Below are positions 4,494 through 36,372 of a DNA stretch of 64,000 nucleotides, piece after piece. The first letter of the stretch is position 1. Every line of letters starts with the position of its first letter. The notes under the pieces were generated by a model. That model ran no database searches and was not told where the DNA came from. It was given only the letters and a program-made list of their open reading frames with translations. The translations under genes and the position numbers were made by a program. Location: NCBI GenBank assembly GCA_963709845.1, contig CAVPXV010000005.1:439032-503031 (forward strand), written 5' to 3'. This DNA comes from an uncultured Thermoleophilia bacterium (GTDB lineage Bacteria > Actinomycetota > Thermoleophilia > UBA2241).

Positions 4494-5083
4494 GCAGCCA
4501 GCTGAACCTCGCCAACGCCATCACCATCGCGCGGATCCTGCTCATCCCGGTGTTCCTGGTGCTGCTGCTGTCGGGCATCCCCGAGCCCTACGGGGACATC
4601 GCCGCCGCCGCCGTGTTCATACTGGCGGCGGCCACCGACAAGCTGGACGGCTACGTGGCGCGCCGCAGTAAGCAGATCACCACCCTAGGCCAGTTCCTCG
4701 ATCCGCTCGCCGACAAGCTCCTGATCGCGGCGGCGCTCATCGCCCTCGTCAGCCAGGGGAGGGTGGCGGCCTGGGTCGCCACGCTCATCATCGTCCGCGA
4801 GATCGCCGTCAGCGTCCTGCGCATCGTCGGCGTCTCGCAGGGCGTGTCGATCCCCGCCGACAAGTACGGCAAGCTCAAGACCGTCCTCCAGATCGTCTAC
4901 ATCGTGTACATCCTCGTGCCCACGGAACAGATCGCGCGCTTCATCCACGTGTCCACCGACGTCGCCATCGTGATCCAGTGGGTCCTCGCCGCGGTGGTGG
5001 TGGTGGTCACGCTCGCCAGCGGCGTGCGCTACTTCCTCAACGCCCGCGGCGTGATCCGCATGCCGGGCAGCGTGCCGCGATGA
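4490..5083 (+). CDS. pgsA: CDP-diacylglycerol--glycerol-3-phosphate 3-phosphatidyltransferase
   Basis: CDP-alcohol phosphatidyltransferase signature DKLDGYVARR...GQFLDPLADKLL with multi-TM hydrophobicity. Start overlaps the rimO stop. Confidence 0.85.
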   Translation: MSSQLNLANAITIARILLIPVFLVLLLSGIPEPYGDIAAAAVFILAAATDKLDGYVARRSKQITTLGQFLDPLADKLLIAAALIALVSQGRVAAWVATLIIVREIAVSVLRIVGVSQGVSIPADKYGKLKTVLQIVYIVYILVPTEQIARFIHVSTDVAIVIQWVLAAVVVVVTLASGVRYFLNARGVIRMPGSVPR

Positions 5084-6330: not shown

Positions 6331-6881
6331 GCGCCCGCGGGCAGGCCGCGACGCTTCGCCTGTTCGTGGCCTGCGAGCTTCCCGCCGAGGTCGTCCGCGG
6401 CATCTCGGCTTGGCAGCGCACGGCGCTCGCCGGCCGCCCCGACGTGCGCGCCAATCACGCGCTGCACCTCACCCTGGTCTTCCTCGGCAGCCTGCCGGAG
6501 GAGCGCGTCCCCGAGATCGGCGCCGTGCTTGCGGCGATCCCTTTCCCGGCGGCGTCCGTCAGCGTCGAGGCGCCGGCCTTCCTGCCGGCGCGCGGCCTCA
6601 AGCGCGTGGTCGTTCTGCCGCTGCGCGAGAGCGGGGGAGAGCTGGCCGCCCTGCAGACGCGCGTCGGCGACGGGCTCGCGCGCGCCGGCCTGTACTCACC
6701 CTCGGCGCGCCCGTGGCTGCCACACGTCACGGTGGCCCGATTCCGCCGTCCGGGTCACCCGTTTCCCCTGCAAAACGTGAACATTCCGCGGTTTGGTGTC
6801 GTCCGGATGGTCTTGTATAGTAGCCTCCTGGAGCGGGCAGGCGCCGTGCACACCCCCCTGGCAGACTTCCACGCGTCCTGA
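6327..6881 (+). CDS. thpR: RNA 2',3'-cyclic phosphodiesterase (2H family, LigT/ThpR)
   Basis: Two H-x-T-x motifs (HLTLVFLG and HVTVARF) at the expected spacing. ATG overlaps the cinA stop. Confidence 0.8.
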
Positions 6882-6900
6882 GCGAGAGAGGAGCGCTACG

Positions 6901-7977
6901 TTGGACAAGGACAAAGCCCTCGAGGCGGCCGTCACGCAGATCGAGCGACAGTTCGGCAAGGGCAGCGTCATGCGTCTCGGCGACCACCCCGTGAGCGACG
7001 ACATGCTGTTCGTGCCGACGGGGTCTCTCGCGCTCGACATCGCCCTCGGCGTCGGCGGCATCCCGCGGGGCCGCATCATCGAGATCTACGGCCCCGAGTC
7101 GTCGGGCAAGACGACGATGGTCTATCACCTCATCGCCGAGGCCCAGCGTCTCGGTGGCCAGGCTGCGTTCATCGACGCCGAACACGCCATGGACCCCATC
7201 TACGCCAAAGCCATCGGCGTCGATGTGGACAATCTGCTGGTGTCGCAGCCCGACTACGGCGAGCAGGCGCTCGAGATCGCCGAGATGCTGGTGCGCAGCG
7301 GCGCGCTCGACATCGTCGCCATCGACTCCGTGGCGGCGCTCACCCCGAAGGCCGAGATCGAGGGGGAGATGGGCGACAGCTTCGTCGGCCTGCAGGCCCG
7401 ACTCATGAGCCAGGCACTGCGCAAGCTGGCGGGCTCGCTGAACCGTTCGGGCACCATCTGCTGCTTCACCAACCAGCTGCGCGAGAAGATCGGCGTGATG
7501 TTCGGCAACCCCGAAGTCACGACCGGTGGTAAAGCGCTCAAGTTCTACGCCACCATCCGCCTCGACATCCGCCGCATCGAGACGCTCAAGGACGGCACCG
7601 AGGCGGTCGGCAACCGCGTCCGCGTCAAGGTCGTCAAGAACAAGGTCGCGCCGCCGTTCAAGCAGGCGGAGTTCGACATCATGTACGGGCAGGGCATCTC
7701 GCGCGAGGGCACCCTGCTCGACCTCGGCGTGCTCCACGACGTCGTCGCCAAGAGCGGCGCCTTCTTCAGCTACAACGACGAGCGCCTCGGGCAGGGCCGC
7801 GCCAACGCCAAGGTGTTCCTCAAGGACAATCCGGACATCGCCGACGCCATCGAGGCCCAGATCCGCGAGAAGGCCGGGTTGCCGGTCGCGGCCGCCCCGG
7901 CCCCCGGCGCCGCTCCCGTGGAGCCGGCCGTGGCGGTGCCGGCGGGCGTCGATCCGGTCACCGGCGAGGTCCTCTAG
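6901..7977 (+). CDS. recA: Recombinase RecA
   Basis: [29 protein letters not shown]-terminus, Walker [10 protein letters not shown] and the full RecA core. TTG start preceded by GAGAGAGGAG. Confidence 0.95.
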
Positions 7978-19280: not shown

Positions 19281-19808
19281 TCAGTACGTGATCAGGCTGA
19301 AGACGTCGTAGCCCTTGATCTTCTCGCGGCCGTTGAGGTCGGCGAGCTCGATCAGGAAGGCACAGCCGACGACCGTGCCTCCGAGCTGCTCGACGAGGTC
19401 GATCTTCGCCTTGGCGGTGCCGCCGGTGGCCAGGAGATCGTCGTGGACGAGCACGTTCTGCCCCGGCTTGATGGCGTCCGCGTGGATCTCGAGGCGATCG
19501 GTGCCGTACTCGAGGTCGTATTCCGCCGCGATCGTGCGGTACGGCAGCTTGCCCGGCTTGCGCGCGCAGACGAAGCCGGCGCCGAGGCCGTAGGCGACCG
19601 CGGCGCCGAGGATGAAGCCACGCGCCTCCGCCCCGAGCACGACGTCGACGTGCTTGCCGGTGCCGTACTCGATGATGCGGTCGACGGCCTCACGCAAGGC
19701 TACGGGGTCCTGCAGCAGCGGCATGATGTCGCGGAAGAGGATGCCCTCCTTGGGGAAATCCGGGATGTCGCGTACGTGCTTGCCGAGGTCGATGCGGCCG
19801 TCGGTCAT
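19281..19808 (-). CDS. apt: Adenine phosphoribosyltransferase
   Basis: 175 aa with the PRPP-binding VLVHDDLLATGGTA motif and an Apt-type N-terminus. Confidence 0.9.
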   Translation of the reverse strand: MTDGRIDLGKHVRDIPDFPKEGILFRDIMPLLQDPVALREAVDRIIEYGTGKHVDVVLGAEARGFILGAAVAYGLGAGFVCARKPGKLPYRTIAAEYDLEYGTDRLEIHADAIKPGQNVLVHDDLLATGGTAKAKIDLVEQLGGTVVGCAFLIELADLNGREKIKGYDVFSLITY

Positions 19809-19823
19809 GGAGTCTCTCCTTGG

Positions 19824-20522
19824 TCAGCGGCCGTCGCGGCCGCCGCTGAGGCGCCGCACGCCGCGCGCGAGCAGCAGCTGGCGCAGCTGCGTGGTCGCCT
19901 GGACGATGTCGTCGAGCTGCTCGAGGCCCTCACGCCGGCGCTCCGGCCGGTTCGACTTGAGCGCCGGCAAGAGCACCTGCTCGATGAGCCCGACCTCACG
20001 GTCGATGGCGCTCTTGAGGACGCGCAGGTTCTTGGGGCGCAGGCCGAGCGGCGCCAGCTGAGCCGCGGCGCCGACGATGCCGGCGTCGGTCTCCGTGTAG
20101 CGCCGCACGCCGCTCACCTGGCGCGCGCGCACCAGCTCGTACTCCTCGAGCTCGCCGAGCAGCGCCTGGTCGGCGCCGGTCATCTGCACGATCTCCTCGG
20201 CGGTGTACTCGCGCTCCTCGCCCACGCTGAGGAGCGCCGTCTTGCGCAGGCTCTGGCGCGCCGCCGGCGGGCTCGCCGGGCTGCGCTCGAGCTCCCGGCG
20301 GATGACCTTGAGCGGCAGGTACTCGTCGCGCTGCATGGCGAGCACGCGCACCAGCCGGCTGAAGTCGTCCTGCGAGTAGAGGCGGTACCCTGACTTGGTG
20401 CGGCGCGGCGTCACCAGGCCCTGTTCCTCGAGATAGCGGAGCTTGCTGACGCTGATGTCCGGGAACTCGCCGTGCAGGCGCTCCACGACGGCGCCGATGG
20501 TGAGCAGTTTCTCGTCGCCCAC
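19824..20522 (-). CDS. MerR-family transcriptional regulator
   Basis: N-terminal MerR HTH (LLTIGAVVERLHGEFPDISVSKLRYLEEQGLVTPRRTKSGYRLY). Sits downstream of an FHA gene, as in the actinobacterial GarA-FtsR arrangement. Confidence 0.8.
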   Translation of the reverse strand: MGDEKLLTIGAVVERLHGEFPDISVSKLRYLEEQGLVTPRRTKSGYRLYSQDDFSRLVRVLAMQRDEYLPLKVIRRELERSPASPPAARQSLRKTALLSVGEEREYTAEEIVQMTGADQALLGELEEYELVRARQVSGVRRYTETDAGIVGAAAQLAPLGLRPKNLRVLKSAIDREVGLIEQVLLPALKSNRPERRREGLEQLDDIVQATTQLRQLLLARGVRRLSGGRDGR

Positions 20523-20549
20523 GTCGAACAGGAGTTCGGCGGTGTCGCG

Positions 20550-21005
20550 TCATGGCGCGAGGTAGGTGAGCTTGTACTTGCCGATCTGGATCTCGTCGCC
20601 GTCGCTCAGCACGGTGCGCTCGCCGCGGCGGCGATTCACGTACGTGCCGTTGAGGCTGCCCTCGTCGACGATGACCCACTCCCCGCCCTCGCGCTTCACG
20701 ATCGCGTGATTGCGTGAGACGGTGACGTCGTCGAGGAAGATGGTGGCGTCCGGGTGGCGCCCGATGGTCACCTGCTCGCCGCGCAGCGGGAAGGTCTCGC
20801 CGGCGCGGCCGCCGCCGCTGCGGAAGACGAGGCACGCCTCGTCCCCGGCGGTCGCGGTGAAGGCGTTGGCTTCGGCGTCCTCGTCGCCGGGCTGGTAGCT
20901 CATCGTCGTCGCGGAGTCGGGCTGGCCGCCGATGAGGCTGGCGCCACAGCGCACGCAGAAGCTGGCGCCCTCGGAGTTCCGCAGGCCGCACTCGGGGCAG
21001 AACAC
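20550..21005 (-). CDS. FHA-domain protein with N-terminal zinc ribbon
   Basis: GTG start after GGAGGA. CPECG...CVRCG zinc ribbon, then FHA core (GRHPDATIFLDDVTVSRNHAIV...GSLNGTYVN). The upstream ORF-track extension is spurious. Confidence 0.8.
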   Translation of the reverse strand: MFCPECGLRNSEGASFCVRCGASLIGGQPDSATTMSYQPGDEDAEANAFTATAGDEACLVFRSGGGRAGETFPLRGEQVTIGRHPDATIFLDDVTVSRNHAIVKREGGEWVIVDEGSLNGTYVNRRRGERTVLSDGDEIQIGKYKLTYLAP

Positions 21006-21006
21006 C

Positions 21007-21303
21007 TCAGTCCTCCGTGGAGCCCTCGGGGGCCGGCGAGCCCTCGCCGGCCGTCTCCCCCGTCTCCGGCATCTGGCCGGCCAGGATGCGCGACAGCCCG
21101 CGCACATCGTCGGCCGAGATCACCGACTCGCCCTCCGCGTGCTTGCGCTGCAGGCGCATCACGAGCTCGGCGCGCAGGATGTCAAGCTTGCCTTGAAGGA
21201 TGCGCCGCTGGCGCGAGATCTCGCGCTCTTCCGCCTCGAGCTCGGCGACCAGCGCGCGGAGCTCGTCGTCAGACCGTGAGACCAGGTCCACGATATCGTC
21301 CAT
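21007..21303 (-). CDS. Small acidic coiled-coil protein (hypothetical), translationally coupled to the FHA gene
   Basis: 98 aa with heptad-like LRALVAELEAEEREISRQRRILQGKLDIL. Its stop is 1 nt from the FHA gene GTG start. Confidence 0.5.
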   Translation of the reverse strand: MDDIVDLVSRSDDELRALVAELEAEEREISRQRRILQGKLDILRAELVMRLQRKHAEGESVISADDVRGLSRILAGQMPETGETAGEGSPAPEGSTED

Positions 21304-21360: not shown

Positions 21361-21957
21361 TCAAGGTTCAAGCTCAGGTTGAGGCCGCTCCTCGGCGACC
21401 TCTGGGCCCGCCGCAGGCGCCTCCACACGCACGATGCCGCGTGCCACGAGCCTCTCCATGGCCTCGAGGGCGACGCGCTCGTCCAGCGAGCCGCCGCCGC
21501 TGACGGCCGCGACGACTTCGCCGAGGTTCTGAGGGCCAAGGCCGAGGCGGGCGACGAGCGCGGCCTCGGCCTCACCCTCAGGGTGACCGCCGATGAGGGT
21601 CACGTTCGCCCCGGAGGGCAGCTCCCGGCGAAGCTGCTGCAGCTCGTCGAGGCGGCGCATGCCCTCGATCAGCAGGGACTCGAGCGGGAGGGCCTCGTCG
21701 TCGGCCGCCTCCCCCACCTCTCCCTGCGGATCGAAGTCGAACGTGCCCGTCGAGACCGCGAGGACGGCCAGGAAGGCGGACGCGCCGCTGAGGTGCCCAC
21801 AGGACGCGCCCACGAGGAGGCCGGCGCGGAAGACGAGCGCGCCGGCGAGCGCGCCGCCGGCGTCGCAGACCGTGAGGAGTCCCGTCTTGCCGCCGAGCGC
21901 CGTCATCTGCACGAGGTCCGGCAGCGGGAGCTCGGAGAGGCTGCCCTTCAGGCCCAT
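21361..21957 (-). CDS. DUF4388-domain protein
   Basis: MGLKGSLSELPLPDLVQM N-terminus matches the DUF4388 pattern. Divergently oriented from mglB/mglA. The TTG-extended ORF to 22005 is less likely. Confidence 0.65.
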   Translation of the reverse strand: MGLKGSLSELPLPDLVQMTALGGKTGLLTVCDAGGALAGALVFRAGLLVGASCGHLSGASAFLAVLAVSTGTFDFDPQGEVGEAADDEALPLESLLIEGMRRLDELQQLRRELPSGANVTLIGGHPEGEAEAALVARLGLGPQNLGEVVAAVSGGGSLDERVALEAMERLVARGIVRVEAPAAGPEVAEERPQPELEP

Positions 21958-22159
21958 GGCGGCCGCGGGCGTGCGTTGCGTGTCAGAGGCGTCATGTGCT
22001 ACCAAGCTTCGCAGCGCGGCGCCGGCTTCCTGCCGCCGGCGCCGGCCTCGCGACCAGGGCGGCCGCAGGTCTCATGCTTTCGCGCCCAAAAGTCGATACA
22101 GGGGACGCAGGGCGGGCTGGTATACTTCGCTGGCAACGCACGTGTATTGGAGGGCGTAC

Positions 22160-22645
22160 GTGGCGCGACGCAAAGGACTCGTCATCAACGATCGGCAGCT
22201 CGACCGCTGCGACGAGCTCCTGCAGAAGCTCAAGGACGTCTCCGGGTCCAGCTTCCTGGCGCTGATCAGCACGTCCGGGCAGCCGATCACCACGGCCGCC
22301 GACGCCTACCACCCAGAGACGCTGTCTCTCGCCTCGCTCGCGGCGAGCTCGTTCGCGGCCACGCAGCAGCTCGCCAAGATCCTCGACGAGAGCGAGTTCA
22401 CGCTCCTCTTCCACGAAGGCAAGGCCCTCAATCTGCACGTCTCCCAGGTCAACGAGCAGGTGCTGCTCATCGTCACCTTCGGGCGCGACACGCAGGTCGG
22501 CAAGGTGCGCCTCTACACGCAGCGCGCCATCGAAGTGCTGCGCCAGATCTTCGAAGGTCCTGACGACGGCACCACGCCGACGATGGACGCCGATTTCGAG
22601 GCCACCGCCGGCGACGCCATCGACGACCTGTTCAAAGACGTCTGA
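22160..22645 (+). CDS. mglB: Roadblock/LC7-domain protein, MglB-like GTPase-activating partner
   Basis: GTG start after GGAGGG. Roadblock fold pattern (LQKLKDVSGSSFLALISTSGQPI...LLIVTFGRDTQVGKVRLY). Immediately upstream of mglA. The long 5' ORF-track extension is a GC artefact. Confidence 0.7.
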   Translation: MARRKGLVINDRQLDRCDELLQKLKDVSGSSFLALISTSGQPITTAADAYHPETLSLASLAASSFAATQQLAKILDESEFTLLFHEGKALNLHVSQVNEQVLLIVTFGRDTQVGKVRLYTQRAIEVLRQIFEGPDDGTTPTMDADFEATAGDAIDDLFKDV

Positions 22646-22655
22646 GAGCCTGCCG

Positions 22656-23234
22656 ATGCCGCTGATCAATTTCGCCGCCCGCGAGATCAACTACAAGATC
22701 GTCTACTACGGCTGCGGGCTCTGTGGGAAGACCACGAACCTGCAGTACGTGCACCGCAAGATCAACCCCGACGCGCGCGGCAAGCTGGTGAGCATCGCCA
22801 CCGAGGAGGAACGCACCCTCTACTTCGACTTCCTCCCGCTCACGCTCGGCACCGTCAAGGGCATGCAGACGCGCTTCCATCTCTACACCGTGCCCGGCCA
22901 GAGCTACTACAACGCCAGCCGCAAGCTCGTGCTGCAGGGCGTCGACGGCGTCGTCTTCGTGGCCGACTCGCAGATCACACGCCTGGACGAGAACGTCGAG
23001 AGCTACCTCAACCTCTGGGACAACCTCCTGGGCCAGGGCGACGACCTCACCAAGCTGGGGTTCGTCGTGCAGATGAACAAACGGGACCTCACCGACATCT
23101 TCTCGGTGGAGGACCTCAACGAGCTGCTCAACCACACCCAGTCGCCCGTCGTCGAGTCGAGCGCGGTCAGCGGCGAGGGCGTGTTCGAGACGCTCAAAGT
23201 CGTCTGCAAGCAGGTCATCGCCAAGACCGGCTGA
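22656..23234 (+). CDS. mglA: Ras-like small GTPase MglA
   Basis: End-to-end similarity to Myxococcus/Thermus MglA (INYKIVYYGCGLCGKTTNLQYV, FHLYTVPGQSYYNASRKLVLQGVDGVVFVADSQ, NKRDL). Confidence 0.9.
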   Translation: MPLINFAAREINYKIVYYGCGLCGKTTNLQYVHRKINPDARGKLVSIATEEERTLYFDFLPLTLGTVKGMQTRFHLYTVPGQSYYNASRKLVLQGVDGVVFVADSQITRLDENVESYLNLWDNLLGQGDDLTKLGFVVQMNKRDLTDIFSVEDLNELLNHTQSPVVESSAVSGEGVFETLKVVCKQVIAKTG

Positions 23235-23278
23235 GGGCGGCCGCGGCGTCAGCCGCACCGGCCGCCCGGGGCGGGCAT

Positions 23279-25078
23279 TCACGTCCCGACGCGCTTCACC
23301 CAGTCCATGGGCGCGTAGTGCGACACGAACGCGTCGCGGAACAGCAGCGCGCCGGCGGCGCTGCGCACCGTCCGCTCCACCCTGATGCTGCGTCCGTCGA
23401 TGCCCTGCTGCCAGCGTACGAGGCCCCGCCCCAGGTCGCTGTCGTAGATCACGCGCGGGTGGGCCTTGCCGTAGGCGGGTTTGCGCACGTCGTAGAAGGC
23501 GCCCGTGACGTAGGTCACCTTGCGGCCTGTCCTGCCGATGATCGCCACGGTGACGTGGTCGCCCTGCACCCAGCTGCGGATGGTCAGCGGCCTTGCGGTG
23601 TCGTTGCGGAACCTGAAGTCGGCGCTGCCCCAGGAGACCGTCGCGTCGCGCCCGATCGGGTAGTGCGAGATGTACAGCGAATGCGCGTGCCGCTCGACCA
23701 CGGGCAGCCCCGCGAAGAAGACGGCGTTGAACAGCGTCGTCGCGTACTGGCAGATGCCGCCCCCCACCCCCTGCCGCAGCACGTTGTCGGCGGCGATCAC
23801 CGGCGCGTAGTCGAAGCCCCGGTTGGTGGTGCGCGGCCCGAGCGCCGCGTTGAGCGAGAACGTCGCGCCGGGGCGCACCACGGTGCCATCGACGATGCCG
23901 GCGGCGAGCGCGATGTTCTTGACGCGCGTCGTGTTGCGCGGGTCGAAATAGGTCACGAACTGCGAGCCCTGTGAGGCAAAGCCGTCCGCCGCGAGGGCGC
24001 CGGCCGTGAGCGCAGGCACGGCGGGCTGGACGGCCACGAAGACGCTGCGCAGGCCGCCGCCCGTGACGGCGGCGTCGAGGTCGCCGAGCAGGACGGCCAT
24101 GTCGAGGACCTGCCCCTCGCGGCTCGGCGTGATCGTGACGCTGCCGTCCGAGTGCACGACGAGCCGGGCGTCGACCGGCTTCACCTCGGCCGCGGCCAAC
24201 AGCCGGTGGAGCGCGGCCCTCGCCCGGTCGTTGCGGAACGTGAGCGGGTACTCCGAGGCGTCGGCGCCGGTGTTGACGCTCAGCATCGCCGCCATCTGCG
24301 CCGGGCCGAGGACCACGGACGTGCCTCGGTAGCGCAGCGTCACCGGGCGAGAAAGGTAGGAGGCCGCCGCCGCGGCCCGCGACTGCGCGACGGCCGTGCT
24401 CACCTGCGGCGGCACGGCCTTGAGCGGCAGCGGCCCCGAGTAGCTCCGGCCGGCGGCGACGCTGGCGCGGATGGCGCGCTCGAGCGCGAGCGCGTCCACC
24501 GTGCTGCCCGCCGCCGAGGGCACGACGTCGACGACGCCGCCGCGCACGGTGAGGCGCGCGTCCCGGGCGGGCACGTCCACCTGCTTGCGCACCGCCTCGA
24601 GGGCGGCGTCGTAGGCGCCGGCCGAGACGTCGAGCGCGGGCGCCAGCACGGCGCCGCTCCCGGGCAGCCACACGCTGACGCCGAGCGGCAGCCGGTGACG
24701 GCCGGCGGCGAGGGCGGCACGCACGGTCGCCGCGGTATCGAGCTTCATGCCCAGCGTGCCGAGGGTGAACGAGACCGGCGCGCTGCCCGCGCGCTGCAGG
24801 CGCACCGCGTCGACGCGCGGCGCCAGCTCGCGCGCCAAGGTCGCCCGCGCTTGCGCGGCGCTCTGCCCCTGCAGGCTCACGCCGGCCACCGTGACCCCGT
24901 CGCCGACGCGGCCGTGCATCGCCACCTGGACGGCCGCGAACCCGCTCAGCACGACGAGGAACACGAGGCCGAGCGTCAGCGTCCAAGCGTGCCGTCGGTA
25001 CCAGCCTGCGAACCGGCGTAGGCGACCCGGTGCGGCGGCCTGCACCTCAGGAGTCATGCGATCGTCCATGGCGCTCAT
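23279..25078 (-). CDS. VanW-family protein (N-terminal TM plus repeated peptidoglycan-binding-like domains, C-terminal VanW domain)
   Basis: VanW core GGGICQYATTLFNAVFFAGLPVVERHAHS and FSLNAALGPRTTNRGF. TM helix LTLGLVFLVVLSGFAAV. The ORF-track 1515-aa readthrough is an artefact. Confidence 0.8.
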   Translation of the reverse strand: MSAMDDRMTPEVQAAAPGRLRRFAGWYRRHAWTLTLGLVFLVVLSGFAAVQVAMHGRVGDGVTVAGVSLQGQSAAQARATLARELAPRVDAVRLQRAGSAPVSFTLGTLGMKLDTAATVRAALAAGRHRLPLGVSVWLPGSGAVLAPALDVSAGAYDAALEAVRKQVDVPARDARLTVRGGVVDVVPSAAGSTVDALALERAIRASVAAGRSYSGPLPLKAVPPQVSTAVAQSRAAAAASYLSRPVTLRYRGTSVVLGPAQMAAMLSVNTGADASEYPLTFRNDRARAALHRLLAAAEVKPVDARLVVHSDGSVTITPSREGQVLDMAVLLGDLDAAVTGGGLRSVFVAVQPAVPALTAGALAADGFASQGSQFVTYFDPRNTTRVKNIALAAGIVDGTVVRPGATFSLNAALGPRTTNRGFDYAPVIAADNVLRQGVGGGICQYATTLFNAVFFAGLPVVERHAHSLYISHYPIGRDATVSWGSADFRFRNDTARPLTIRSWVQGDHVTVAIIGRTGRKVTYVTGAFYDVRKPAYGKAHPRVIYDSDLGRGLVRWQQGIDGRSIRVERTVRSAAGALLFRDAFVSHYAPMDWVKRVGT

Positions 25079-25134
25079 TGTACGGCACGGGTTCGCGCAC
25101 GGCGGCCCGCCACCTGCACCGGCGCCCGCTGCGC

Positions 25135-27657
25135 CTAGTCGTTCTCCGCGATCACGTCGCGCACCACCGCGAGCAGGTCCTCGGCCAGGCGCTCCGACTC
25201 GGCGTGGTCCGCGCCCTCGGCGTAGACGTGGAAGACGGGCTCGTCGGCGTCCGGCAGGAGCTGGACCCAGCTGCCGTCGTGCCGCATCCTGATCCCGTCC
25301 AAAAGGCTGATCTCGGCGCCGGCGGCGGCGCGCTGCTGCAGACCCTCCGTCGCCGTGCGCATCACCGTGCCCTTGAGCGACCAGGGGCAGGCCACGGTCT
25401 TGTGTACCAGGGTGCTGGCGGGGATGTCGGCGACCTGCGCGCTGAGGGGCCGCGCCTGCGGCGCCAGCAGCTCCAGCAGCTTGCCCAGGCTCATGACGGC
25501 GTCGAAGGCGGGCAGGAACTGCGGGAAGATGTAGCCGCCGCCGAGCGCCCCGGCGAACACGACGCCGTCCTCGAGTGACGCCTTGGCGAGCTCCGGCAGC
25601 GAGACTTTGGTGCGCACGATCTCGACGCCGAACTCGCCGGCGAGCTGCTCGGCGAGGTGCGTGATGGTGAGCGGCAGCACGATCTTCTCGCCCCTGCCCG
25701 CCTGCTGCGCCACGAGCTTCACGAACAGGAGGAGCGCCTTCTCGAGAGGCACCTCGGCGCCCGAGTCGTCGATGATGTAGATGCGCTCGGCGCCCGGGCC
25801 GATGACCACGCCGAGGTCCGCCTCCATGGTACGCACCAGGCGCTGCACCTCGGCGATGTTGGCGCCGAGCTGCTCCGCGTCGAGGCTCACGTGGCGCTGA
25901 TCGTTGAAGGCGCGCACCGAGAGGACCTCGGCGTCGAGGTCGCCGAGGATGTTGGGCAGCGAGAGCGAAGCGGGTGAGTGCGAGTAGTCGATCACGAGGC
26001 GGTAGGCGCGGCTGCGGATGCGCTCCCCGTCCCACGAGCCTTTGAGGCCGCGCACGTAGGTCTCCATCGCCCTGTCGGGGAACTGGAGCTCGCCGAACTC
26101 GCTGTAGAAGGCGCGGCGGAAGTCCTCGCGCCCGTAGTACTTCTCGATGTCCTTCTGGCGTTTCTCGCTGAGGTTGAGGCCGGGGGGCTCGAACACCTGG
26201 ATCTGGATCATCTCCGGGTCCCAGCTCGAGATGCGCACGTGCATGCCGCCGTCGGCGCTCCCCGTCCTGGCCTCGTACCTGTTGATGGCGCTGCTGGCGA
26301 CGCGCAGATCGCGCACGATGACGCCGGTGGAGTTGAGGCCGCAGATGAGGGCGCGCTTGATGACCCGCGAGGCCGGATGGGCGTCGCGGCTCGTGGTGAC
26401 GCTGGCGCCCTTCTTGAGCGCCGTGCCGTAGGCCATCGCCAGCTTGAGCGCGAGCTCGGCGGTGATGTCGACGTTGATCAGGCCGGTGACGCCGTCCTTG
26501 CCGAAGAGCTGCGCCGTGCCGCGTGACTCCCAGATGATGCTCGAGTTGACCTGCGCGCCGGCCTCGACCGTCTTGAACGGGTAGACCTTGACGTCCGGGG
26601 CGATGTAGGCCTGCTCGCCGATCACGCACTCGTCGCCGATGGCGACGCCCTCGCTGAAGGTGGCGCCGGCCTTGACGTCGCAGTTCTTGCCGACGATGGT
26701 GCCGTACACCTTGGCCGACGAGCCGATGTACGTGTTGGCGCCGATGACGCTGTTGCGCGTCTCGGCGTGCCCTTTGACCACGACGTTGCTGCCCAGGACG
26801 GAGTACCTGCCGATGGACGCCGTGGCGTCGATCTTGGCGTAGTTGCCGATGAACGCCGGACCGCTCATGTTCTCGAGCGAGTCGAGGTTGATGCCGTCGC
26901 CGAGGAAGATGCGGTCGTGAAGCTCGATGCCGGGGATCTCGGCCTCGACCTTGCCGTCGAGGAGGTCGCGGTTGGCGGCGAGGTACTGCGGCAGGCTGCC
27001 GATGTCCTGCCAGTAGCCCTCCGCGACGTAGCCGAAGAGGGGCGCGCCCATCTCGAAGAGCTTCGGAAACAGGTCCTGGCTGAAGTCGTACTGGGTGTCG
27101 GCCGGGATGTGGTCGAAGACCTCGGGCTCGAGCACGTAGATGCCGGTGTTGACCGTGTCGCTGAACACCTGGCCCCAGGTGGGCTTCTCGAGGAAGCGCT
27201 CGATGCGGCCTTCCTCGTCGACGACGACGACGCCGAAGTCGAGGGGGTTCTCGACGCGCTTGAGCGCGATGGTGACCATGGCGCCGCGGCGCTTGTGGAA
27301 GGCGACGATCTCGCTGAGGTCGAAGTCGGTGAGCGCGTCCCCCGAGATGACGATGAAGGTGTCGTCGCGCAGGTGGTCCTCGGCCAGCTTCACGCTCCCG
27401 GCGGTGCCGGCCGGCGCCTGCTCCACGGAGTAGTTCATGCTCACGCCCAGCGACGAGCCGTCGCCGAAGTAGTCGCGGATGACCTTGGGCAGGAACATCA
27501 GCGTGACCACGGTCTCGTCGATGCCGTGCCGCTTGATGAGCTCGACGATGTACTCCATGCAGGGCTTGCCGCAGAGCGTCACCATCGGCTTGGGCTGGTT
27601 GCTGGTGAGCGGGCGCAGCCTGGTGCCCTCGCCGCCTGCCATGACGACCGCACGCAT
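25135..27657 (-). CDS. Sugar-phosphate nucleotidyltransferase (left-handed beta-helix C-terminus) fused to a phosphomannomutase/phosphoglucomutase-like domain
   Basis: ATG after [26 protein letters not shown] nucleotidyltransferase motif with hexapeptide repeats. The C-terminal alpha/beta PGM/PMM-like domain lacks a canonical TASHNP phosphoserine loop ([13 protein letters not shown] instead). Confidence 0.8.
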
Positions 27658-27773
27658 GGGCCTCACCTGTGCTTTCGCTCGAGAGGACTGGACGTCGTGC
27701 GGCAATCGTACCAGAGCGCGGCGAGCGCGGGCCACGTTGCCGCGGGGGGCTCGCCGGAGAGGCGGCGCGGGGC

Positions 27774-28334
27774 TCAGGCGGCAGCGCCGCCCCCTCCCCG
27801 CGCCCGGCGCACGAAGGCGACGGCACGGTGCAGGTACAGAAGACCGCTGGCCACGTAGAGCGTCGCGCCCACGGCGAAGAACGACCAGCCCACGACGCGG
27901 AAGTCGATGATGAACCACTGGATGGCGCAGATCAGGATGAAGTTGCCGGCCTTGCCCCAGCGGCTGATCTGTGGCCCCTGCCGCGTGTAGCGCCGCGTCG
28001 GCGCCACCAGCACCAGGATGACGCCGTCGCGGACCAGGAGCGGAAGCACGGCCCACCAGGGCAGTGTGCCGAAGTACCAGAGCATCGCCACAAGTGTGAA
28101 GAAGAAGAGCCGGTCGACGATGGGGTCCAGCCAGCGCCCGAACTCGCTCTGCAGGTGGTAGCGCCGCGCGATGATCCCATCGGCGACGTCGCTGAGCGCC
28201 GCGAAGAGGACGATCCAGGCCGTCGTCCAGCTGGCGCCGGGCGCGTAGAGGCCGTAGGTCCAGACGACGAAAGGCAGGGCCACGAGGCGCGCGACGGTGA
28301 GGACGTTGGGCACGTGGCGCAGGAGGCGTTCCAT
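27774..28334 (-). CDS. CDP-alcohol phosphatidyltransferase family protein
   Basis: Signature [10 protein letters not shown]...G...DPIVDR with 5-6 TM segments. Confidence 0.8.
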
Positions 28335-28446
28335 TGGCGGGCAGTCTAGCAGGCCGCTGTGGAAGCCGCCGCGCGGCCCCTCACCGGCCCCTCTCCCCCA
28401 CGCCGACGCCTCCGCGTGCCTATGCTAGAATACGGCGCTGTACGGT

Positions 28447-28524
28447 CGGCGTGTGGCGCAGCCTGGTTAGCGCACTAGTCTGGGGGACTAGGGGTCGCCG
28501 GTTCAAATCCGGCCACGCCGACCA
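28447..28524 (+). tRNA. tRNA-Pro (anticodon GGG)
   Basis: Manually folded cloverleaf: 7-bp acceptor CGGCGTG/CACGCCG, D-arm GCGC/GCGC, anticodon stem CTAGT/ACTAG with loop CTGGGGG, T-arm GCCGG-TTCAAAT-CCGGC, encoded CCA. Confidence 0.85.
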
Positions 28525-30848: not shown

Positions 30849-31188
30849 GCCCGCCCCCCACTCGAATGCTCCGGCGCACCGCCACGTGCGCCGAGGCTCT
30901 GGGCGGCCCGCCGCGCCGTCAAGATGGCGGAGTGCGATGGGCCTGCGCAAACGCTACACCACGCGCAACGGGCGCAGCCCCAACGTAGCCGTCGCCGACA
31001 ACGCCTTTGGCGGCGCGGAGGCGGCGGCGCAGGCGCATCGGCCCTTCCGCCGGCGCTGAAGAGGATTCGCCTGGACTCCGGCCCGTCGGATCCCGTAAAC
31101 GGAGAGCGTCCGCACGGAATCGGATACGTTAGCGGTGCCGACGTCACGCCGTGACGAGGCTCATCACAGGCTCGGGCAGGGGGACACG

Positions 31189-32766
31189 ATGGAGGAGCGC
31201 GTAGCGGGCAAGGGCGATCTGCGGGACGGCCAGATGACGACCGTGCTCGTCGGCGGCAAGAAGGTCCTGCTGGCCAAGGTCGACGGTCGCTTCTACGCGA
31301 CCTCGGCGCGCTGCCCGCACTGGGGCGGGCCGCTGCCCGAGGGTACCCTGAACGGCCCGCGCCTCCTCTGCCCCTGGCACAAGGCCACCTACGACGTGCG
31401 CCGCGGCGACCTCCTGGAGCCGCCGTCCCTCGACGGCATCGCCGCCTTTCGCGTACGCGTCGAGGGCGAAGACGTGTTCGTCGACCGCTCCGAGGAGCCG
31501 CGCCGCGGGCGCACGATGCCCATGTACGCCTGCGACCTCGCGGCCGACGCGCGCGTCGTGGCCGTGATCGGCGGCGGCGGCGGCGCGGCCGCGGCCGTCG
31601 AGGCGCTGCGCCAGGAGTGCTTCATCGGCCGCATCGTGATGATCAGCCCCGAAGAGGAGTGGCCCTACGACCGCCCCAACCTGAGCAAGGACTTCCTCGC
31701 CGGAGAGCTGGACGCGAAGTGGCTGCCGCTGCGCTCGCCGGAGTTCTACGACGAGCACACCATCGAGCATCTCGTGGCGCGCGTGACGGAGCTCGACGTC
31801 GGCACGCGCCGGCTCACGCTCGAGGACGGGAGCACCATGACGCCCGACGCCGTGCTCATCGCCGGCGGTGCGCGGCCTCGCCGCCTGGACGTGCCGGGCG
31901 CGGATCTGGCGGGCGTCTTCACTCTGCGCTCGCAGGCGGACGCCGTGGCCCTCGGCGCCGCCGCCGCCGGCGCCCGGCGCGCCGTCGTCGTCGGCGCTAG
32001 CTTCATCGGCATGGAGGCCGCGGCCAGTCTCGCGCGGCGCGGCCTCGAGGTGATCGTGACCGGTCCCGAGTCGACGCCGTTCGAGCGCATCCTCGGCGAG
32101 GACGTCGGCCGCGTCGTGCAGGCGTGCCACGCCGAGCACGGCGTGCGTTTCGCGCTCGGGCGCGGCGTCGCACGCTTCGTGGGGGAGGGCACAGTCCGCG
32201 CCGTCGAGCTCGACGACGGGACGGCGCTCGACGCCGACCTCGTCGTGGTCGGCGTCGGCGTGCGCCCGGCGACCGAGTTCGTGCGCGGCGTCGAGCTCGA
32301 CGCCGACGGCGGTCTGCCCGTGGACGAGCGCCTGCGCGTCGCGCCGGGCGTGTGGGCGGCCGGTGACGTAGCCCGCTACCGCGAGCCCCACACCGGCCGC
32401 GACGTGCGCATCGAGCACTGGCGCCTCGCCGAGCAGCACGGCCGCGCCGCCGCCGCCGACATCGCCGGCAGGGGCGGGCCGTTCGCCGGCGTCCCCTTCT
32501 TCTGGACGCAGCACTTCGACCTCGAGCTCGGCTACGCCGGCGTCGGCCAGGGCTGGTCGGAGGTCATCCTCACCGGCGAGCCTGAGCAGCGCGACTTCAC
32601 CGCGTTCTACGCCGACGGTGACCGGCTCGTGGCCGCCTGCGGCACCCAGCGCGCCGAGATCGGCGCCTTCGTCGAGCTCATGCGCGAGGGTCGCCTGCCC
32701 GGACCGGGCGACATGCGCGGGCGCCGGCGGGCCGGCCTCGCGGAGCTTCTCGCGCGCCGCGCCTGA
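31189..32766 (+). CDS. Rieske [2Fe-2S] domain fused to an FAD-dependent pyridine nucleotide-disulfide oxidoreductase (AIF/ferredoxin-reductase-like)
   Basis: Rieske CPHWGGPL...CPWHKATYD, then FAD/NAD Rossmann motifs VIGGGGGAAAAVEAL and VVVGASFIGMEAA. ATG after GGGGGA. Confidence 0.85.
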   Translation: MEERVAGKGDLRDGQMTTVLVGGKKVLLAKVDGRFYATSARCPHWGGPLPEGTLNGPRLLCPWHKATYDVRRGDLLEPPSLDGIAAFRVRVEGEDVFVDRSEEPRRGRTMPMYACDLAADARVVAVIGGGGGAAAAVEALRQECFIGRIVMISPEEEWPYDRPNLSKDFLAGELDAKWLPLRSPEFYDEHTIEHLVARVTELDVGTRRLTLEDGSTMTPDAVLIAGGARPRRLDVPGADLAGVFTLRSQADAVALGAAAAGARRAVVVGASFIGMEAAASLARRGLEVIVTGPESTPFERILGEDVGRVVQACHAEHGVRFALGRGVARFVGEGTVRAVELDDGTALDADLVVVGVGVRPATEFVRGVELDADGGLPVDERLRVAPGVWAAGDVARYREPHTGRDVRIEHWRLAEQHGRAAAADIAGRGGPFAGVPFFWTQHFDLELGYAGVGQGWSEVILTGEPEQRDFTAFYADGDRLVAACGTQRAEIGAFVELMREGRLPGPGDMRGRRRAGLAELLARRA

Positions 32767-32961: not shown

Positions 32962-33786
32962 ATGGCACGCCCACTCTGGAAGGGAAGCATCAGTTTCGGA
33001 CTCGTCTCCATCCCCGTCCACGTGTACTCGGCGACCCGCGCGCGAGCGCTGCGCTTTCGTCAGCTCGATCGTCGCGACAAGTCCCCGATCCGCGAACAGC
33101 GGATCAACGAGACGACCGGCCGCGAGGTGCTCTGGGAGGACATCGTCAAGGGCTACGAGTACGAGAAGGACTCCTTCGTGATCGTCGAGCCCGAGGATTT
33201 CGAACGCGCCAACGTCAAGGCGACCGAGACCATCGAGATCATGCAGGCCGTGCCGCGCGACGCGCTGGCGCCTGAGTACCTCGAGACTCCGCTGTTCGTG
33301 GTGCCGACCAAGGCCGGCATCAAGGCCTACCACCTGCTGCGCGAGACCCTGCGCCACAGCGACCGGCTGGCGATCGCGACGATCGTCATGCGCGGGCATC
33401 AGCACCTGGCCGCGCTGATCCCCCACGAGGACGTCATGATGCTGGAGCTCCTGCGCTTCGCTCACGAGCTCAAGGCGCTCTCCGATCTCGACCTCGACTA
33501 CGACATCTCGGCGCCGGAGACGAGGCCCGCCGAGATCGAGATGGCGGAACAGCTGGTCGCGGCGCTCGACGCACCGTGGCAGCCCAAGCAGTACCGCGAC
33601 GAGTACCGCGACGACCTGCTGGCGTTCATCGAGCGCAAGGCGAAGAGCGGCGAGAAGCCGGTGCGCAGCGCCGGCCGCGCCGACCGCGGCGAGCCCGCCG
33701 AAGTGGTGGACATCATGGAGCTGCTCAAGCAGAGCGTCGGCGAGGCGCGCGGCCGCGGCCGCTCGCGCCAGCGCAAGGCGAGCTGA
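32962..33786 (+). CDS. ku: Non-homologous end joining protein Ku
   Basis: MARPLWKGSISFGLVSIPVHVYSAT N-terminus and full Ku core. Confidence 0.9.
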   Translation: MARPLWKGSISFGLVSIPVHVYSATRARALRFRQLDRRDKSPIREQRINETTGREVLWEDIVKGYEYEKDSFVIVEPEDFERANVKATETIEIMQAVPRDALAPEYLETPLFVVPTKAGIKAYHLLRETLRHSDRLAIATIVMRGHQHLAALIPHEDVMMLELLRFAHELKALSDLDLDYDISAPETRPAEIEMAEQLVAALDAPWQPKQYRDEYRDDLLAFIERKAKSGEKPVRSAGRADRGEPAEVVDIMELLKQSVGEARGRGRSRQRKAS

Positions 33787-33801: not shown

Positions 33802-36372
33802 ATGAGCCCGCTCGAGACATACCGCGACAAGCGCGACTTCGAGAAGACGGCGGAACCCGAGGGCCGTGCGTCGCGGCGGCGCTCGCGCGCCGCCGAAGCG
33901 GGCGGCGCCTTCGTCATCCACAAGCACGCGGCGCGCCGGTTGCACTACGACCTGCGCCTGCAGATGGACGGCGTGCTGCGCAGCTGGGCGGTGCCCAAAG
34001 GGCCCAGCCTGGACCCCGCGGTGAAGCGCCTCGCCGTCCACGTCGAGGACCATCCCCTGGAGTACGGCGCGTTCGAGGGGGTGATCCCCAAGGGCGAATA
34101 CGGCGGAGGGACGGTCATGATCTGGGACGCCGGCCTCTGGGAGGCGATCGGCGACGCGCCGGCCGGCTACCTCCGCGGCGAGCTCAAGTTCCGTCTCGAC
34201 GGTCAGCGCCTGCACGGCGCCTGGGTGCTCGTGCGCCTCAAGGGCCGCTCGGAGTCGGGAGAGGGCGCCGGAGACGGCCGCGACTGGCTGCTGATCAAGG
34301 AACGCGACGCCGAGGCGCAGCCGGGCGGCGCCGACCCGTGGGGCGACGAGGACCGCAGCGTGACGAGCCGGCGCACGATGAGCGAGATCGCGGCGGCCAG
34401 TCCACCGCCGGCGGCGCGCGGGCAGGCGTCGCGCACCGCCTCGCGCCGGCCGCGCACCGGTGGGCGGTCCTCCCCACCGCCCGCCGCGGCGAGCGTCACG
34501 CTGGCCACGCTCGTCGACGGTCCGCCCGACGGTGACGACTGGCTGCACGAGATCAAGTTCGACGGCTACCGCATCCTGGCGCGCCTGGACCACGGCCACG
34601 TGACGCTGCTTTCGCGCAACGGCCTCGACTGGACGCACCGCTTTCCGACGCTGGCCAAGGAGGTGGCGGAGCTGGAGACGGACGGCGCCCTGCTCGACGG
34701 CGAAGTCGTCGCCTACCGGGCGGACGGCGTCAGCGATTTCGGCGCCCTGCAGCGCGCCTTGAGCGAGGCCGACGACCGCAGCCTGACCTACATGGCGTTC
34801 GACCTCCTGCACGCCGACGGCGCCGACCTGCGGCGGCTGCCGCTGGCGAGGCGCAAGGCGCGCCTCGCCGAGTTGCTGCGAGCGGGAGAGGCCGGCGGCT
34901 CGGGCATCATCCGCGTCAGCGACCACGTCGCCGGCCACGGGGCGGCCTTCTACGCGGAGGCCTGCCGCCTCGGGCTCGAGGGCGTCGTCTCCAAGCGCGC
35001 CGACAGCGCCTACGCCGGCCGGCGCTCGCGCTCCTGGCTCAAGAGCAAGTGCGGCAAGCGTCAGGAGTTCGTCGTCGGCGGCTTCACGGACCCTGCCGGC
35101 AGCAGGACCGGGTTCGGCGCCCTCCTCGTCGGCGCCCGCGAGGCCGACGGCAGCCTGCGCTTCGCCGGCAAGGTCGGCTCCGGCTTCAGCGACGCCGACC
35201 TTCGGCGCCTGGCGCCGCGCCTGAAGGCCGCGGCGCGCCGGTCCTCGCCGTTCGCCGCGGCCGCCACGGTGCGCGGCGCGCACTGGGTCACGCCGAGACT
35301 GGTGGTCGAGGTCGCGTTCGCGGGCTGGACGAACGAGGGACGCCTGCGCCAGCCCGTGTTCAAGGGCGTGCGCGAGGACAAGCCGGCCGCGGCCGTGCGC
35401 CGCGAAGGCGCGGCCGCCAAGGCGTCCGCGCCCGCGAAGCCGCCGGCGGACCCGGACGCGGGTGCCGGCAAGCGCCCGAAGGCCGGCGCCCCTGTCTCCG
35501 TGGCCGGCGTGAGGATCTCGCACCCCGAGCGCCTCGTGTATCCCGACGTCGGGATGACCAAGCTCGAGGTCGTCAGCTACTACGAGGCGGTCGCGGAGCG
35601 CATGGTCCCGCAGCTCGACGGCCGGCCGCTCACCGTCGTGCGCTGCCCCGAGGGCGCCGCCGAGGAGTGCTTCTTCCAGAAGCGCGCGGCCGCGTCGATC
35701 CCCGACCGGGTCGAGAGGGTGACCGTCGCGCCGGGGCGCGGCAACCGCGGCACCATGGTCTACCCCGCCGTCACGAGCACGGCGGCGCTGATCACGATGG
35801 TGCAGATGGGCGCCCTCGAGTTCCACATCTGGGGATCGCGCGAGGCCACGCTCGAGGCTCCGGACAGGGTGGTGTTCGACCTCGACCCCGCCCCGGAGGT
35901 GAGGTGGGCCGAGGTGCGCACGGCGGCCCTGCGCCTGCGCGACGATCTGCGCGAGCGGGGGCTCGAGAGCCTGGTGATGACGTCCGGCGGCAAGGGGCTG
36001 CACGTCGTCGTCCCGCTGCGGCCGCAGGCCGGCTGGGATGCCGTCGCCGGCTTCGCCCGCGAGGTCGCCGAGGGTCTCGTGGCGCAGTATCCGCAGCAGT
36101 ACGTCGCCACCATGTCGAAGGCAAAGCGCGCCGGCAAGGTGTTCATCGACCACTTCCGCAACGGTCGCGGCGCGACGGCGATAGCGCCGTACTCACTGCG
36201 CGCCCGCGACGGCGCGGCGGTGGCCACGCCTCTGGCGTGGGACGAGCTCGCGAGGACCGCGGGAGGGGCCGTCTGGACGGCGCCGCGGGTGCTCCGCCGG
36301 CTGCGCTCCCGCGAGGATCCGTGGGCTGAGGCGGGCTCGCTCGGCCGGCAGACCTGGAGGCAGCGGCGATGA
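33802..36372 (+). CDS. ligD: Multidomain ATP-dependent DNA ligase LigD (phosphoesterase-ligase-polymerase order)
   Basis: N-terminal PE domain (FVIHKHAARRLHYDLRL), ligase motif I EIKFDGYR, C-terminal primase-polymerase domain (SHPERLVYPDVGMTKLEVVSYYEAVAERM). Confidence 0.9.
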   Translation: MSPLETYRDKRDFEKTAEPEGRASRRRSRAAEAGGAFVIHKHAARRLHYDLRLQMDGVLRSWAVPKGPSLDPAVKRLAVHVEDHPLEYGAFEGVIPKGEYGGGTVMIWDAGLWEAIGDAPAGYLRGELKFRLDGQRLHGAWVLVRLKGRSESGEGAGDGRDWLLIKERDAEAQPGGADPWGDEDRSVTSRRTMSEIAAASPPPAARGQASRTASRRPRTGGRSSPPPAAASVTLATLVDGPPDGDDWLHEIKFDGYRILARLDHGHVTLLSRNGLDWTHRFPTLAKEVAELETDGALLDGEVVAYRADGVSDFGALQRALSEADDRSLTYMAFDLLHADGADLRRLPLARRKARLAELLRAGEAGGSGIIRVSDHVAGHGAAFYAEACRLGLEGVVSKRADSAYAGRRSRSWLKSKCGKRQEFVVGGFTDPAGSRTGFGALLVGAREADGSLRFAGKVGSGFSDADLRRLAPRLKAAARRSSPFAAAATVRGAHWVTPRLVVEVAFAGWTNEGRLRQPVFKGVREDKPAAAVRREGAAAKASAPAKPPADPDAGAGKRPKAGAPVSVAGVRISHPERLVYPDVGMTKLEVVSYYEAVAERMVPQLDGRPLTVVRCPEGAAEECFFQKRAAASIPDRVERVTVAPGRGNRGTMVYPAVTSTAALITMVQMGALEFHIWGSREATLEAPDRVVFDLDPAPEVRWAEVRTAALRLRDDLRERGLESLVMTSGGKGLHVVVPLRPQAGWDAVAGFAREVAEGLVAQYPQQYVATMSKAKRAGKVFIDHFRNGRGATAIAPYSLRARDGAAVATPLAWDELARTAGGAVWTAPRVLRRLRSREDPWAEAGSLGRQTWRQRR

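Follow-up and report, generated by a model that had tools for sequence, protein, structure and literature searches.

A fused sugar nucleotidyltransferase and degenerate phosphohexomutase encoded next to a probable cardiolipin synthase in Thermoleophilia and other Actinomycetota

Background

The SCO1388 protein of Streptomyces coelicolor combines a nucleotidyltransferase with a phosphoglucomutase/phosphomannomutase (PGM/PMM) architecture and has been described as apparently bifunctional (PMC5982138). Disruption of sco1388, alone or together with either of the genuine GDP-mannose pyrophosphorylase genes, gave no GDP-mannose phenotype, and the authors concluded that SCO1388 adds little to the GDP-mannose pyrophosphorylase activity (PMC5982138); the gene was also among those influencing actinorhodin production in a transposon screen (PMC6585502). 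Moreover, the CAP-type cardiolipin synthase that serves as the reference is Sco1389 (PMC8141893), ClsA has been reported to be essential in S. coelicolor (PMC8141893; PMC4686642), and K08744 (CMP-forming cardiolipin synthase) and K16881, the family that includes SCO1388, are syntenic in Streptomyces, Frankia, Kitasatospora and Nocardiopsis (PMC13118837). Here we analyse a gene for an 840-aa fusion protein of this kind, together with the adjoining gene for a CDP-alcohol phosphatidyltransferase, in a 64,000-nucleotide (nt) stretch of DNA from an uncultured Thermoleophilia bacterium (GCA_963709845.1, contig CAVPXV010000005.1, positions 439,032 to 503,031). This whole stretch, referred to as the window, has a GC content of ~71%, and its closest relatives are Thermoleophilia metagenome-assembled genomes (MAGs; Actinomycetota).

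JGI and KEGG name the family mannose-1-phosphate guanylyltransferase / phosphomannomutase (K16881), and NCBI gives the fused proteins the safer label "sugar phosphate nucleotidyltransferase". A search of the literature, as far as it is searchable (coverage is incomplete), returned no description of the mutase half as inactive, and the family, although known, is uncharacterised and probably mis-annotated. We consider it reasonably probable that the fusion protein is an active nucleoside diphosphate (NDP)-hexose pyrophosphorylase with a non-catalytic, regulatory or scaffolding pseudo-mutase attached, co-expressed with a probable cardiolipin synthase because the two are co-regulated rather than part of one pathway.

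Results

The mutase half keeps its fold and has lost its catalytic loops

The fusion gene occupies positions 25135..27657 (-) of the window (open reading frame, translation and Pfam), with the stop codon at 25135-25137 (-) and an aggtgagg ribosome-binding site ahead of the ATG; a protein encoded on a 554-kb metagenome contig (P0001) is 99% identical to its product. The initial annotation had described a nucleotidyltransferase, a left-handed beta-helix (LbH) domain and a phosphohexomutase fold within 840 aa, and both Pfam and the structural model bear out this architecture and the coordinates given for it. The C-terminal half, aa 383-840 (25138..26511, -), comprises all four PGM/PMM subdomains as judged by Pfam, Foldseek and loop alignments. 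Specifically, Pfam PGM_PMM_I, II and III span aa 383-745 (E 1e-17, 4e-10 and 5e-7), and the NCBIfam model Arch_GlmM scores 242 bits, under its cut-off of 439. The AlphaFold model of the fusion protein, based on an 84-sequence alignment that replaced an input of only 15 close homologues (predicted local distance difference test, pLDDT, 57), has a mean pLDDT of 92.6 and a predicted template-modelling (TM) score of 0.63. Foldseek places its C-terminal half on the archaeal PGM/PMM structures 9du5 and 1wqa with target-normalised TM scores of 0.90-0.92 and a root mean square deviation of 2.4-2.6 Å (27-29% identity, about 460 columns).

The loop register was taken from HMMER alignments to the same two structures (9du5, E 1e-59; 1wqa, E 1e-56; about 440 residues). 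In the window protein the former phosphoserine loop reads RISSWD (R475-D480; 26218..26235, -) where TASHNP is canonical, the former metal-binding loop GPGAER (G620-R625; 25783..25800, -) where DGDADR is canonical, the former sugar-binding loop GALGGG (G703-G708; 25534..25551, -) instead of GEENGG, and the former phosphate-binding loop LPDADEP (L801-P807; 25237..25257, -) instead of RASGTEP. In addition, the canonical GVRG has become GVTG (T391) and Q487 stands where the canonical phosphoserine loop has Lys. The metal-binding Asp triad is thereby gone, acidic residues occupy the phosphate-binding Ser and Thr sites, and none of the phosphoserine, metal, sugar and phosphate loops of an active phosphohexomutase is present within the four-domain fold. 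Since every catalytic element has been lost, the C-terminal half is predicted to be unable to work as a phosphoserine mutase.

The initial annotation had thus read the phosphoserine loop correctly as non-canonical and had proposed a non-catalytic or re-purposed module, which holds for the whole fused family and not only for the window gene. It had also expected an alignment with PGM/PMM structures to reveal loss of both the metal loop and the catalytic Ser: the metal loop is lost and the phosphoserine loop is degenerate, but the Ser itself, which had been missed, is present, as S477 lines up with it. This position is unconserved in the family, where relatives have A, T, P, V, H, K or G (Ala in close homologues, various residues in Gaiellales, Thr in Nonomuraea, Val in a Streptomyces plasmid copy, His in a cyanobacterium and Lys in Sulfuricurvum). 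Other residues are conserved within the family and absent from canonical mutases, i.e. R460, R475 (at the site of Thr in TASHNP), P662 and the motif G763-x-x-M-R767. Judging from the sequences, constraint on the dead mutase domain persists, and R460, R475 and R767, which may face what was once the active-site cleft, could provide a new binding site for an anionic ligand.

Loop loss is common to the fused family

An exhaustive HMMER search with the mutase half gave 483 cluster representatives at E ≤1e-30, and those of at least 430 aa among the best 150 were aligned. The canonical loops are missing in all 64 full-length fused proteins in this set (about 830 aa, 29-47% identity, several phyla); all four occur in only two of its members, free-standing mutases of 456 and 458 aa. 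Across all proteins checked, canonical loops were found only in free-standing mutases of 456-476 aa. The same loss was seen in 118 close homologues, at 79 genome loci (50-92% identity), and in Nonomuraea, the Streptomyces plasmid copy, the cyanobacterium, Eremiobacterota and Sulfuricurvum. One 830-aa cluster (P0152) retains DGDADR and GGENGG and lacks the serine loop; it is the sole fused type that keeps the Asp triad and may represent an evolutionary intermediate.

Named members in Actinomycetota belong to Thermoleophilia, Gaiellales, Rubrobacteraceae, Candidatus Aquicultor, Nonomuraea and Streptomyces plasmids; others come from Cyanobacteria, Chloroflexota, Omnitrophota, Elusimicrobia, Eremiobacterota, a deltaproteobacterial MAG and Sulfuricurvum. 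The window protein has the ~830-aa architecture of the SCO1388/K16881 family and, as in other Actinomycetota, an adjoining K08744-type gene. As far as the mutase half is concerned, the "bifunctional" K16881 label is very probably an error.

An archaeal glmU-glmM pair, simply fused, was considered as the origin; in the archaeal operon glmM precedes glmU, the opposite of the order in the fusion. A Methanohalobium plasmid (L093, 1..5486) carries such an operon, glmU-glmS-glmM-glmU, with unfused relatives of both halves (26-29% identity). In the closest genome relative (L014, 6001..8518; 92% identity) a single frame of the fusion gene gives a match to residues 1-663 alone, and P0087, the 851-aa database protein of that locus, extends over 78% of the query; a frameshift or an assembly error is the probable cause.

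The nucleotidyltransferase half is well conserved

The predicted active sugar-1-phosphate nucleotidyltransferase domain covers aa 1-235 (26953..27657, -), with Pfam NTP_transferase (PF00483) matching aa 3-233 at E 3e-57. It is followed by the LbH (hexapeptide) domain at aa 250-365 (26563..26910, -), recognised by Hexapep, LbH_EIF2B and GMPPB_C matches and seen as a short beta-strand ladder in the AlphaFold model. The motifs G8-G-x-G-x-R13..K23, GTAG 84-87, D107, E157-K158-P159 and D218 are all present and their residues are at least 85-90% conserved among the 64 diverse fused representatives. The signature of the PF00483 enzymes of the GDP-mannose pyrophosphorylase (GMPP) and CugP type, G-x-G-x-R-x(n)-K with (F/V/L)EKP and Mg-binding Asp residues, is accordingly complete. 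This is also the best-conserved domain, with a mean identity to the window protein of 55% as against 28-40% for the mutase subdomains.

The half is closest to hexose-1-phosphate enzymes, including their LbH tail. Its core is 46% identical to the closest solved enzyme, PDB 8x7s (tlr0611, deposited as a UTP-glucose-1-phosphate uridylyltransferase, i.e. UDP-glucose pyrophosphorylase), and 37% identical to 7whr; the plant and human GDP-mannose pyrophosphorylases give weaker bit scores. The NCBIfam equivalog cut-offs that would fix a substrate were all missed (man1P_GTase_Rv 263 of 440 bits, Arch_glmU 207 of 292, glgC 121 of 425). We infer that the N-terminal half is an active hexose-1-phosphate nucleotidylyltransferase; a UDP/ADP-glucose or a GDP-mannose route would fit, with glucose somewhat favoured over mannose.

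The adjoining transferase is a probable cardiolipin synthase

The gene upstream of the fusion, at 27774..28334 (-), encodes a small polytopic membrane protein of 186 aa and was assigned by Pfam, NCBIfam and synteny. The proposed adjoining CDP-alcohol phosphatidyltransferase was confirmed: PF01066 (CDP-OH_P_transf) matches at E 2e-30 (106.6 bits), and the catalytic motif, read from the sequence as D49-VA-D-G-II-A-R-x8-G-x3-D-x3-D74 (28113..28190, -), agrees in full with the family pattern D-x2-D-G-x2-A-R-x8-G-x3-D-x3-D. The best NCBIfam match is ClsA (NF053678) with 97.7 bits, short of the equivalog cut-off of 240, and pgsA (TIGR00560) scores 83.6 bits against a cut-off of 109.1. The closest solved relative is Staphylococcus aureus PgsA (7drj).

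The canonical pgsA of the same genome lies elsewhere in the window, at 4490..5083 (+) (TIGR00560, 144.3 bits versus the 109.1 cut-off), in a rimO-pgsA-cinA-recA setting, and the fusion-linked transferase is therefore a second paralogue. The block around pgsA (3447..7977) consists of rimO (3447..4493), pgsA, cinA (4978..6330), a 2'-5' RNA-ligase-like open reading frame and recA (6793..7977); pgsA was checked by NCBIfam and the other names were read from the translations.

In Nonomuraea gerenzanensis the positional orthologue passes the ClsA equivalog cut-off (279.9 bits versus 240). The window transferase is about 31% identical to this ClsA and scores 75-79 bits against it, compared to 40-53 bits against the PgsA of the window, and between classes the fusion-linked transferases share only 27-42% identity. 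Its position is also that of ClsA, i.e. cls-fusion-FHA-MerR synteny with a separate PgsA in the genome. Hence the 186-aa protein is a probable CMP-forming (CAP-type) cardiolipin synthase and positional orthologue of ClsA/Sco1389.

The gene pair is conserved in Actinomycetota

Synteny was examined in 80 genome loci with 50-92% identity (Thermoleophilia, Gaiellales and Solirubrobacterales); these loci are phylogenetically related and the counts do not represent independent events. The transferase gene is found directly upstream of the fusion and on the same strand in 77 of the 80, as the proposed gene link would have it. The two are separated by no more than 20 nt in 47 of the 76 pairs that could be measured, most of these 47 having a 4-nt overlap; in the window, where both are on the minus strand, the distance is 116 nt. 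Genes for RsiG-like, FHA and MerR (Rv1828-type) proteins follow in 71 of the loci, in 68 of these together with apt.

The arrangement is common to four actinobacterial classes. In Rubrobacteraceae the order is cmk, plsC, der, transferase, fusion, FHA, MerR, apt; in N. gerenzanensis transferase, fusion, FHA, MerR; in Aquicultor-type genomes transferase, (MBL), fusion, PGM, DUF881, DUF1290, DUF881, VanW; and on one further contig transferase, fusion, gcvH, with FHA later. The link between transferase and fusion is real and conserved. Outside Actinomycetota, the fusion occurs without an adjoining transferase in at least six lineages. The actinobacterial block presumably corresponds to the mycobacterial region pgsA2 ... 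gcvH, garA, Rv1828, which we take to be without the fusion; mycobacteria would then retain a cardiolipin synthase alone, which would mean that the synthase does not need the fusion.

Gene contexts outside Actinomycetota lean towards glucose

In Candidatus Tumulicola (L083, 962..7487) the fusion follows genes for CBM48/isoamylase and GH77, and a P0152-type member (L096, 3872..12493) lies between a GalT-like gene and genes for glycogen synthase, GH57 and debranching enzyme. A canonical PGM/PMM of 468-476 aa is encoded directly downstream of the fusion in Aquicultor-type actinobacteria and the deltaproteobacterial MAG (L081 7520..8950; L091 7547..8953; L084 2667..4094; also L075), often with an MBL-fold gene nearby; the L081 and L084 copies, the two that were checked, have all four catalytic loops intact. 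In Omnitrophota the fusion adjoins a Wzy_C gene, which points to polysaccharide synthesis. The contexts in the cyanobacterium, Chloroflexota and an unclassified metagenome contig are uninformative, as are the neighbours of the Streptomyces plasmid copies. Overall, gene context outside Actinomycetota leans towards glucose and alpha-glucan metabolism, and the alpha-glucan contexts suggest that the fusion may be an overlooked GlgC/GalU-like supply route.

The Sulfuricurvum kujiense plasmid pSULKU01 (L088, 4518..9290) encodes a fusion homologue with 33% identity and degenerate loops. Its gene lies between those for a phospholipase A and a patatin-like phospholipase and has a 4-nt overlap with the latter.

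Layout of the window around the pair

The conserved downstream block (19281..21303, -), which was identified by Pfam and NCBIfam and is the one present at 71 of the 80 loci and also in Rubrobacteraceae and Nonomuraea, comprises genes for an RsiG-like protein (21007..21303, -), a zinc-ribbon FHA protein (20550..about 20990, -), an Rv1828-type MerR protein (19824..20522, -) and adenine phosphoribosyltransferase (apt; 19281..19808, -). In the clade of the window a VanW gene and a small GTPase/Roadblock/DUF4388 module are inserted 3' of the fusion; in Gaiellales, with no such insertion, the RsiG-like/FHA/MerR block follows the fusion directly. The inserted genes, located between the fusion and that block, are VanW (23279..25078, -) and a MglA/MglB-like module (21361..23234) consisting of a small Ras/Arf-like GTPase gene (22656..23234, +), a Roadblock/LC7 gene (about 22223..22645, +) and a DUF4388 gene (21361..22005, -).

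Just upstream of the transferase gene and divergent from it is a tRNA-Pro gene (anticodon GGG; 28447..28524, +), the sole tRNA gene in the window. Further along, by translation only, one gene (31135..32766) joins a Rieske-type domain to an FAD/NAD(P) disulfide-reductase-like protein; Ku (32962..33786) and a large ligase resembling LigD (33802..36372) come after it. A scan of 23000-28700 found no promoter or terminator, a weak negative in an actinobacterium with 71% GC, and neither half of the fusion occurs a second time in the window.

Discussion

Our preferred reading is that the N-terminal half would convert a nucleoside triphosphate and a hexose-1-phosphate to NDP-hexose and pyrophosphate, with the LbH domain probably serving oligomerisation by analogy with GMPP and CugP-type enzymes. 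For the C-terminal mutase fold we infer a non-catalytic regulatory or scaffolding role, probably in binding a ligand or a partner. The upstream transferase would form cardiolipin and CMP from CDP-diacylglycerol and phosphatidylglycerol, and the two genes would be co-transcribed as the head of an actinobacterial block (cls, fusion, RsiG-like, FHA, MerR). The pairing most likely reflects co-regulation of envelope synthesis and not consecutive steps of one pathway.

Several observations weigh against this. For the fused family as a whole, activity and substrate are read from sequence, and the best NCBIfam match of the N-terminal half is a mycobacterial mannose-1-phosphate guanylyltransferase (263 versus a cut-off of 440). 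The window transferase scores far under the ClsA cut-off and nearly as well with pgsA, the Aquicultor equivalent scores slightly better as pgsA than as ClsA, and the deep-branching classes are about equally distant from both. Moreover, the 4-nt overlaps would equally fit a coupling closer than co-regulation, and the phospholipase context on pSULKU01 is an independent hint of a lipid link from a distant phylum.

Two of the alternatives build on these points. The pair might act directly on a glyco-phospholipid, or the dead mutase might dock on the membrane enzyme or sense anionic lipid and so tune sugar-nucleotide output to membrane growth. Translational coupling in Gaiellales, retention of the pair in four actinobacterial classes, the two phospholipase genes flanking the Sulfuricurvum fusion and the family-specific arginines in the former active-site region would all fit, and GlmM, which has the same fold, presumably regulates CdaA by binding (PDB 7olh, 9g69). 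The conserved block has no glycosyltransferase, however, outside Actinomycetota the fusion is mostly unlinked to lipid genes, and mycobacteria presumably keep their cardiolipin synthase without it; we regard this alternative as unlikely. The second is that the transferase is another phosphatidylglycerophosphate synthase (PgsA), or uses some other acceptor, and that adjacency is inherited gene order without function. The pgsA score close to that of ClsA, the Aquicultor orthologue and the low identity between classes speak for it; against it are the canonical pgsA already present in the window, the higher score of the window transferase with bona fide ClsA than with its own PgsA, and the positional orthology to ClsA that holds in Actinomycetes, and we find it doubtful.

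A bolder extension is that the dead mutase is a ligand sensor that recognises an anionic metabolite or lipid head group through R460, R475 and R767, physically coupling NDP-hexose synthesis to the membrane transferase in actinobacteria, and either making or regulating an undescribed glyco-phospholipid or setting sugar-nucleotide flux by cardiolipin or membrane status. This seems quite unlikely.

The initial annotation had favoured synthesis of an NDP-alcohol (e.g. CDP-inositol or CDP-glycerol), from which the transferase would pass on the phospho-alcohol in a DIPPS-like route to a solute or head group. Such a pathway would account for the tight, conserved and often overlapping gene pair, and IPCT/DIPPS is a precedent for pairing the two enzyme families. 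The proposal does not hold up well, since the transferase falls in the PgsA/Cls clade (the IPCT/DIPPS model NF041135 gives 21.8 bits versus a cut-off of 580, and the DIPPS structure 4mnd is matched at no better than E 0.11), the orthologue at this position in Nonomuraea fits the ClsA equivalog model, the nucleotidyltransferase half with its LbH tail is most like hexose-1-phosphate enzymes, no IPCT family is among the best 25 of 63 NCBIfam matches of the fusion protein, and at least six other lineages have the fusion without the transferase; we rate it very unlikely. Its corollary, that the locus does not simply supply GDP-mannose, is in line with the knockout results in S. coelicolor (PMC5982138).

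Finally, that the protein is a true bifunctional mannose-1-phosphate guanylyltransferase/phosphomannomutase supplying GDP-mannose, as the JGI/KEGG names say, as Howlett et al. assumed for SCO1388 and as four well-folded mutase subdomains and S477 at the catalytic Ser might suggest, is scarcely credible given the replacement of all catalytic elements including the Asp triad, the acidic residues at the phosphate-binding Ser/Thr, the unconserved Ser position, the sco1388 knockout and the canonical mutase encoded beside the fusion in several genomes.

The useful results are the family-wide pseudo-mutase call and the phylum-wide linkage to cls. The bifunctional label is carried by thousands of genes from eight phyla or more, those of Streptomyces and cyanobacteria among them. 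Should the mutase half be dead, any metabolic reconstruction that uses K16881 for mannose-1-phosphate or glucose-1-phosphate supply is wrong, the role of a conserved 460-residue domain has to be found anew, and the lack of a GDP-mannose phenotype in the sco1388 knockout is explained. The family is thus a concrete, testable pseudoenzyme case, with a phylum-wide operon link to a cardiolipin synthase that is essential in Streptomyces.

Comparison with known systems

The SCO1388/K16881 proteins have the same length class (about 830-840 aa), the same architecture and, in Actinomycetes, the same position by K08744 as the window protein; the Nonomuraea and Streptomyces-plasmid members share its degenerate loops and are 41-46% identical to it along their whole length. 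They differ in being described as bifunctional, whereas the sequences here suggest a dead mutase half, as judged from Nonomuraea and the Streptomyces plasmid paralogue. The CugP-type enzyme 8x7s and the GMPPs 7whr, VTC1 (7x8j) and GMPPB (7d72) align end to end with the N-terminal half and share G-x-G-x-R..K and (F/V/L)EKP; unlike the fusion they are about 360-400 aa long and have no mutase-fold domain. The archaeal PGM/PMM enzymes of Thermococcus kodakarensis (9du5) and Pyrococcus horikoshii (1wqa) have the same four-domain fold but keep the catalytic loops and the N-terminal Arg, all of which are replaced in the window protein.

ClsA/Sco1389 (NF053678) belongs to the same family as the window transferase, has the same motif and also heads the cls ... 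FHA, MerR (Rv1828-type) block; the window transferase differs in its score (97.7 bits, under the 240 cut-off) and its identity of about 31% to Nonomuraea ClsA. IPCT/DIPPS (4mnd) likewise pairs a nucleotidyltransferase with a CDP-alcohol transferase; there, however, both are fused in one protein that uses CTP and inositol-1-phosphate and leads to a soluble product, and the window proteins are negligibly similar to it. The structural matches of the fusion protein also include GMPPA/GMPPB (7d72), KONJAC/VTC1 (8yre) and GlmM/CdaA (7olh and 9g69), which we take to be cases of an inactive paralogue or a mutase-fold protein regulating its partner by binding. GMPPA, KONJAC and GlmM are separate polypeptides, whereas the pseudo-mutase of the window protein is fused, and what is inactive is a mutase in the fusion protein but a nucleotidyltransferase paralogue in the case of GMPPA and KONJAC.

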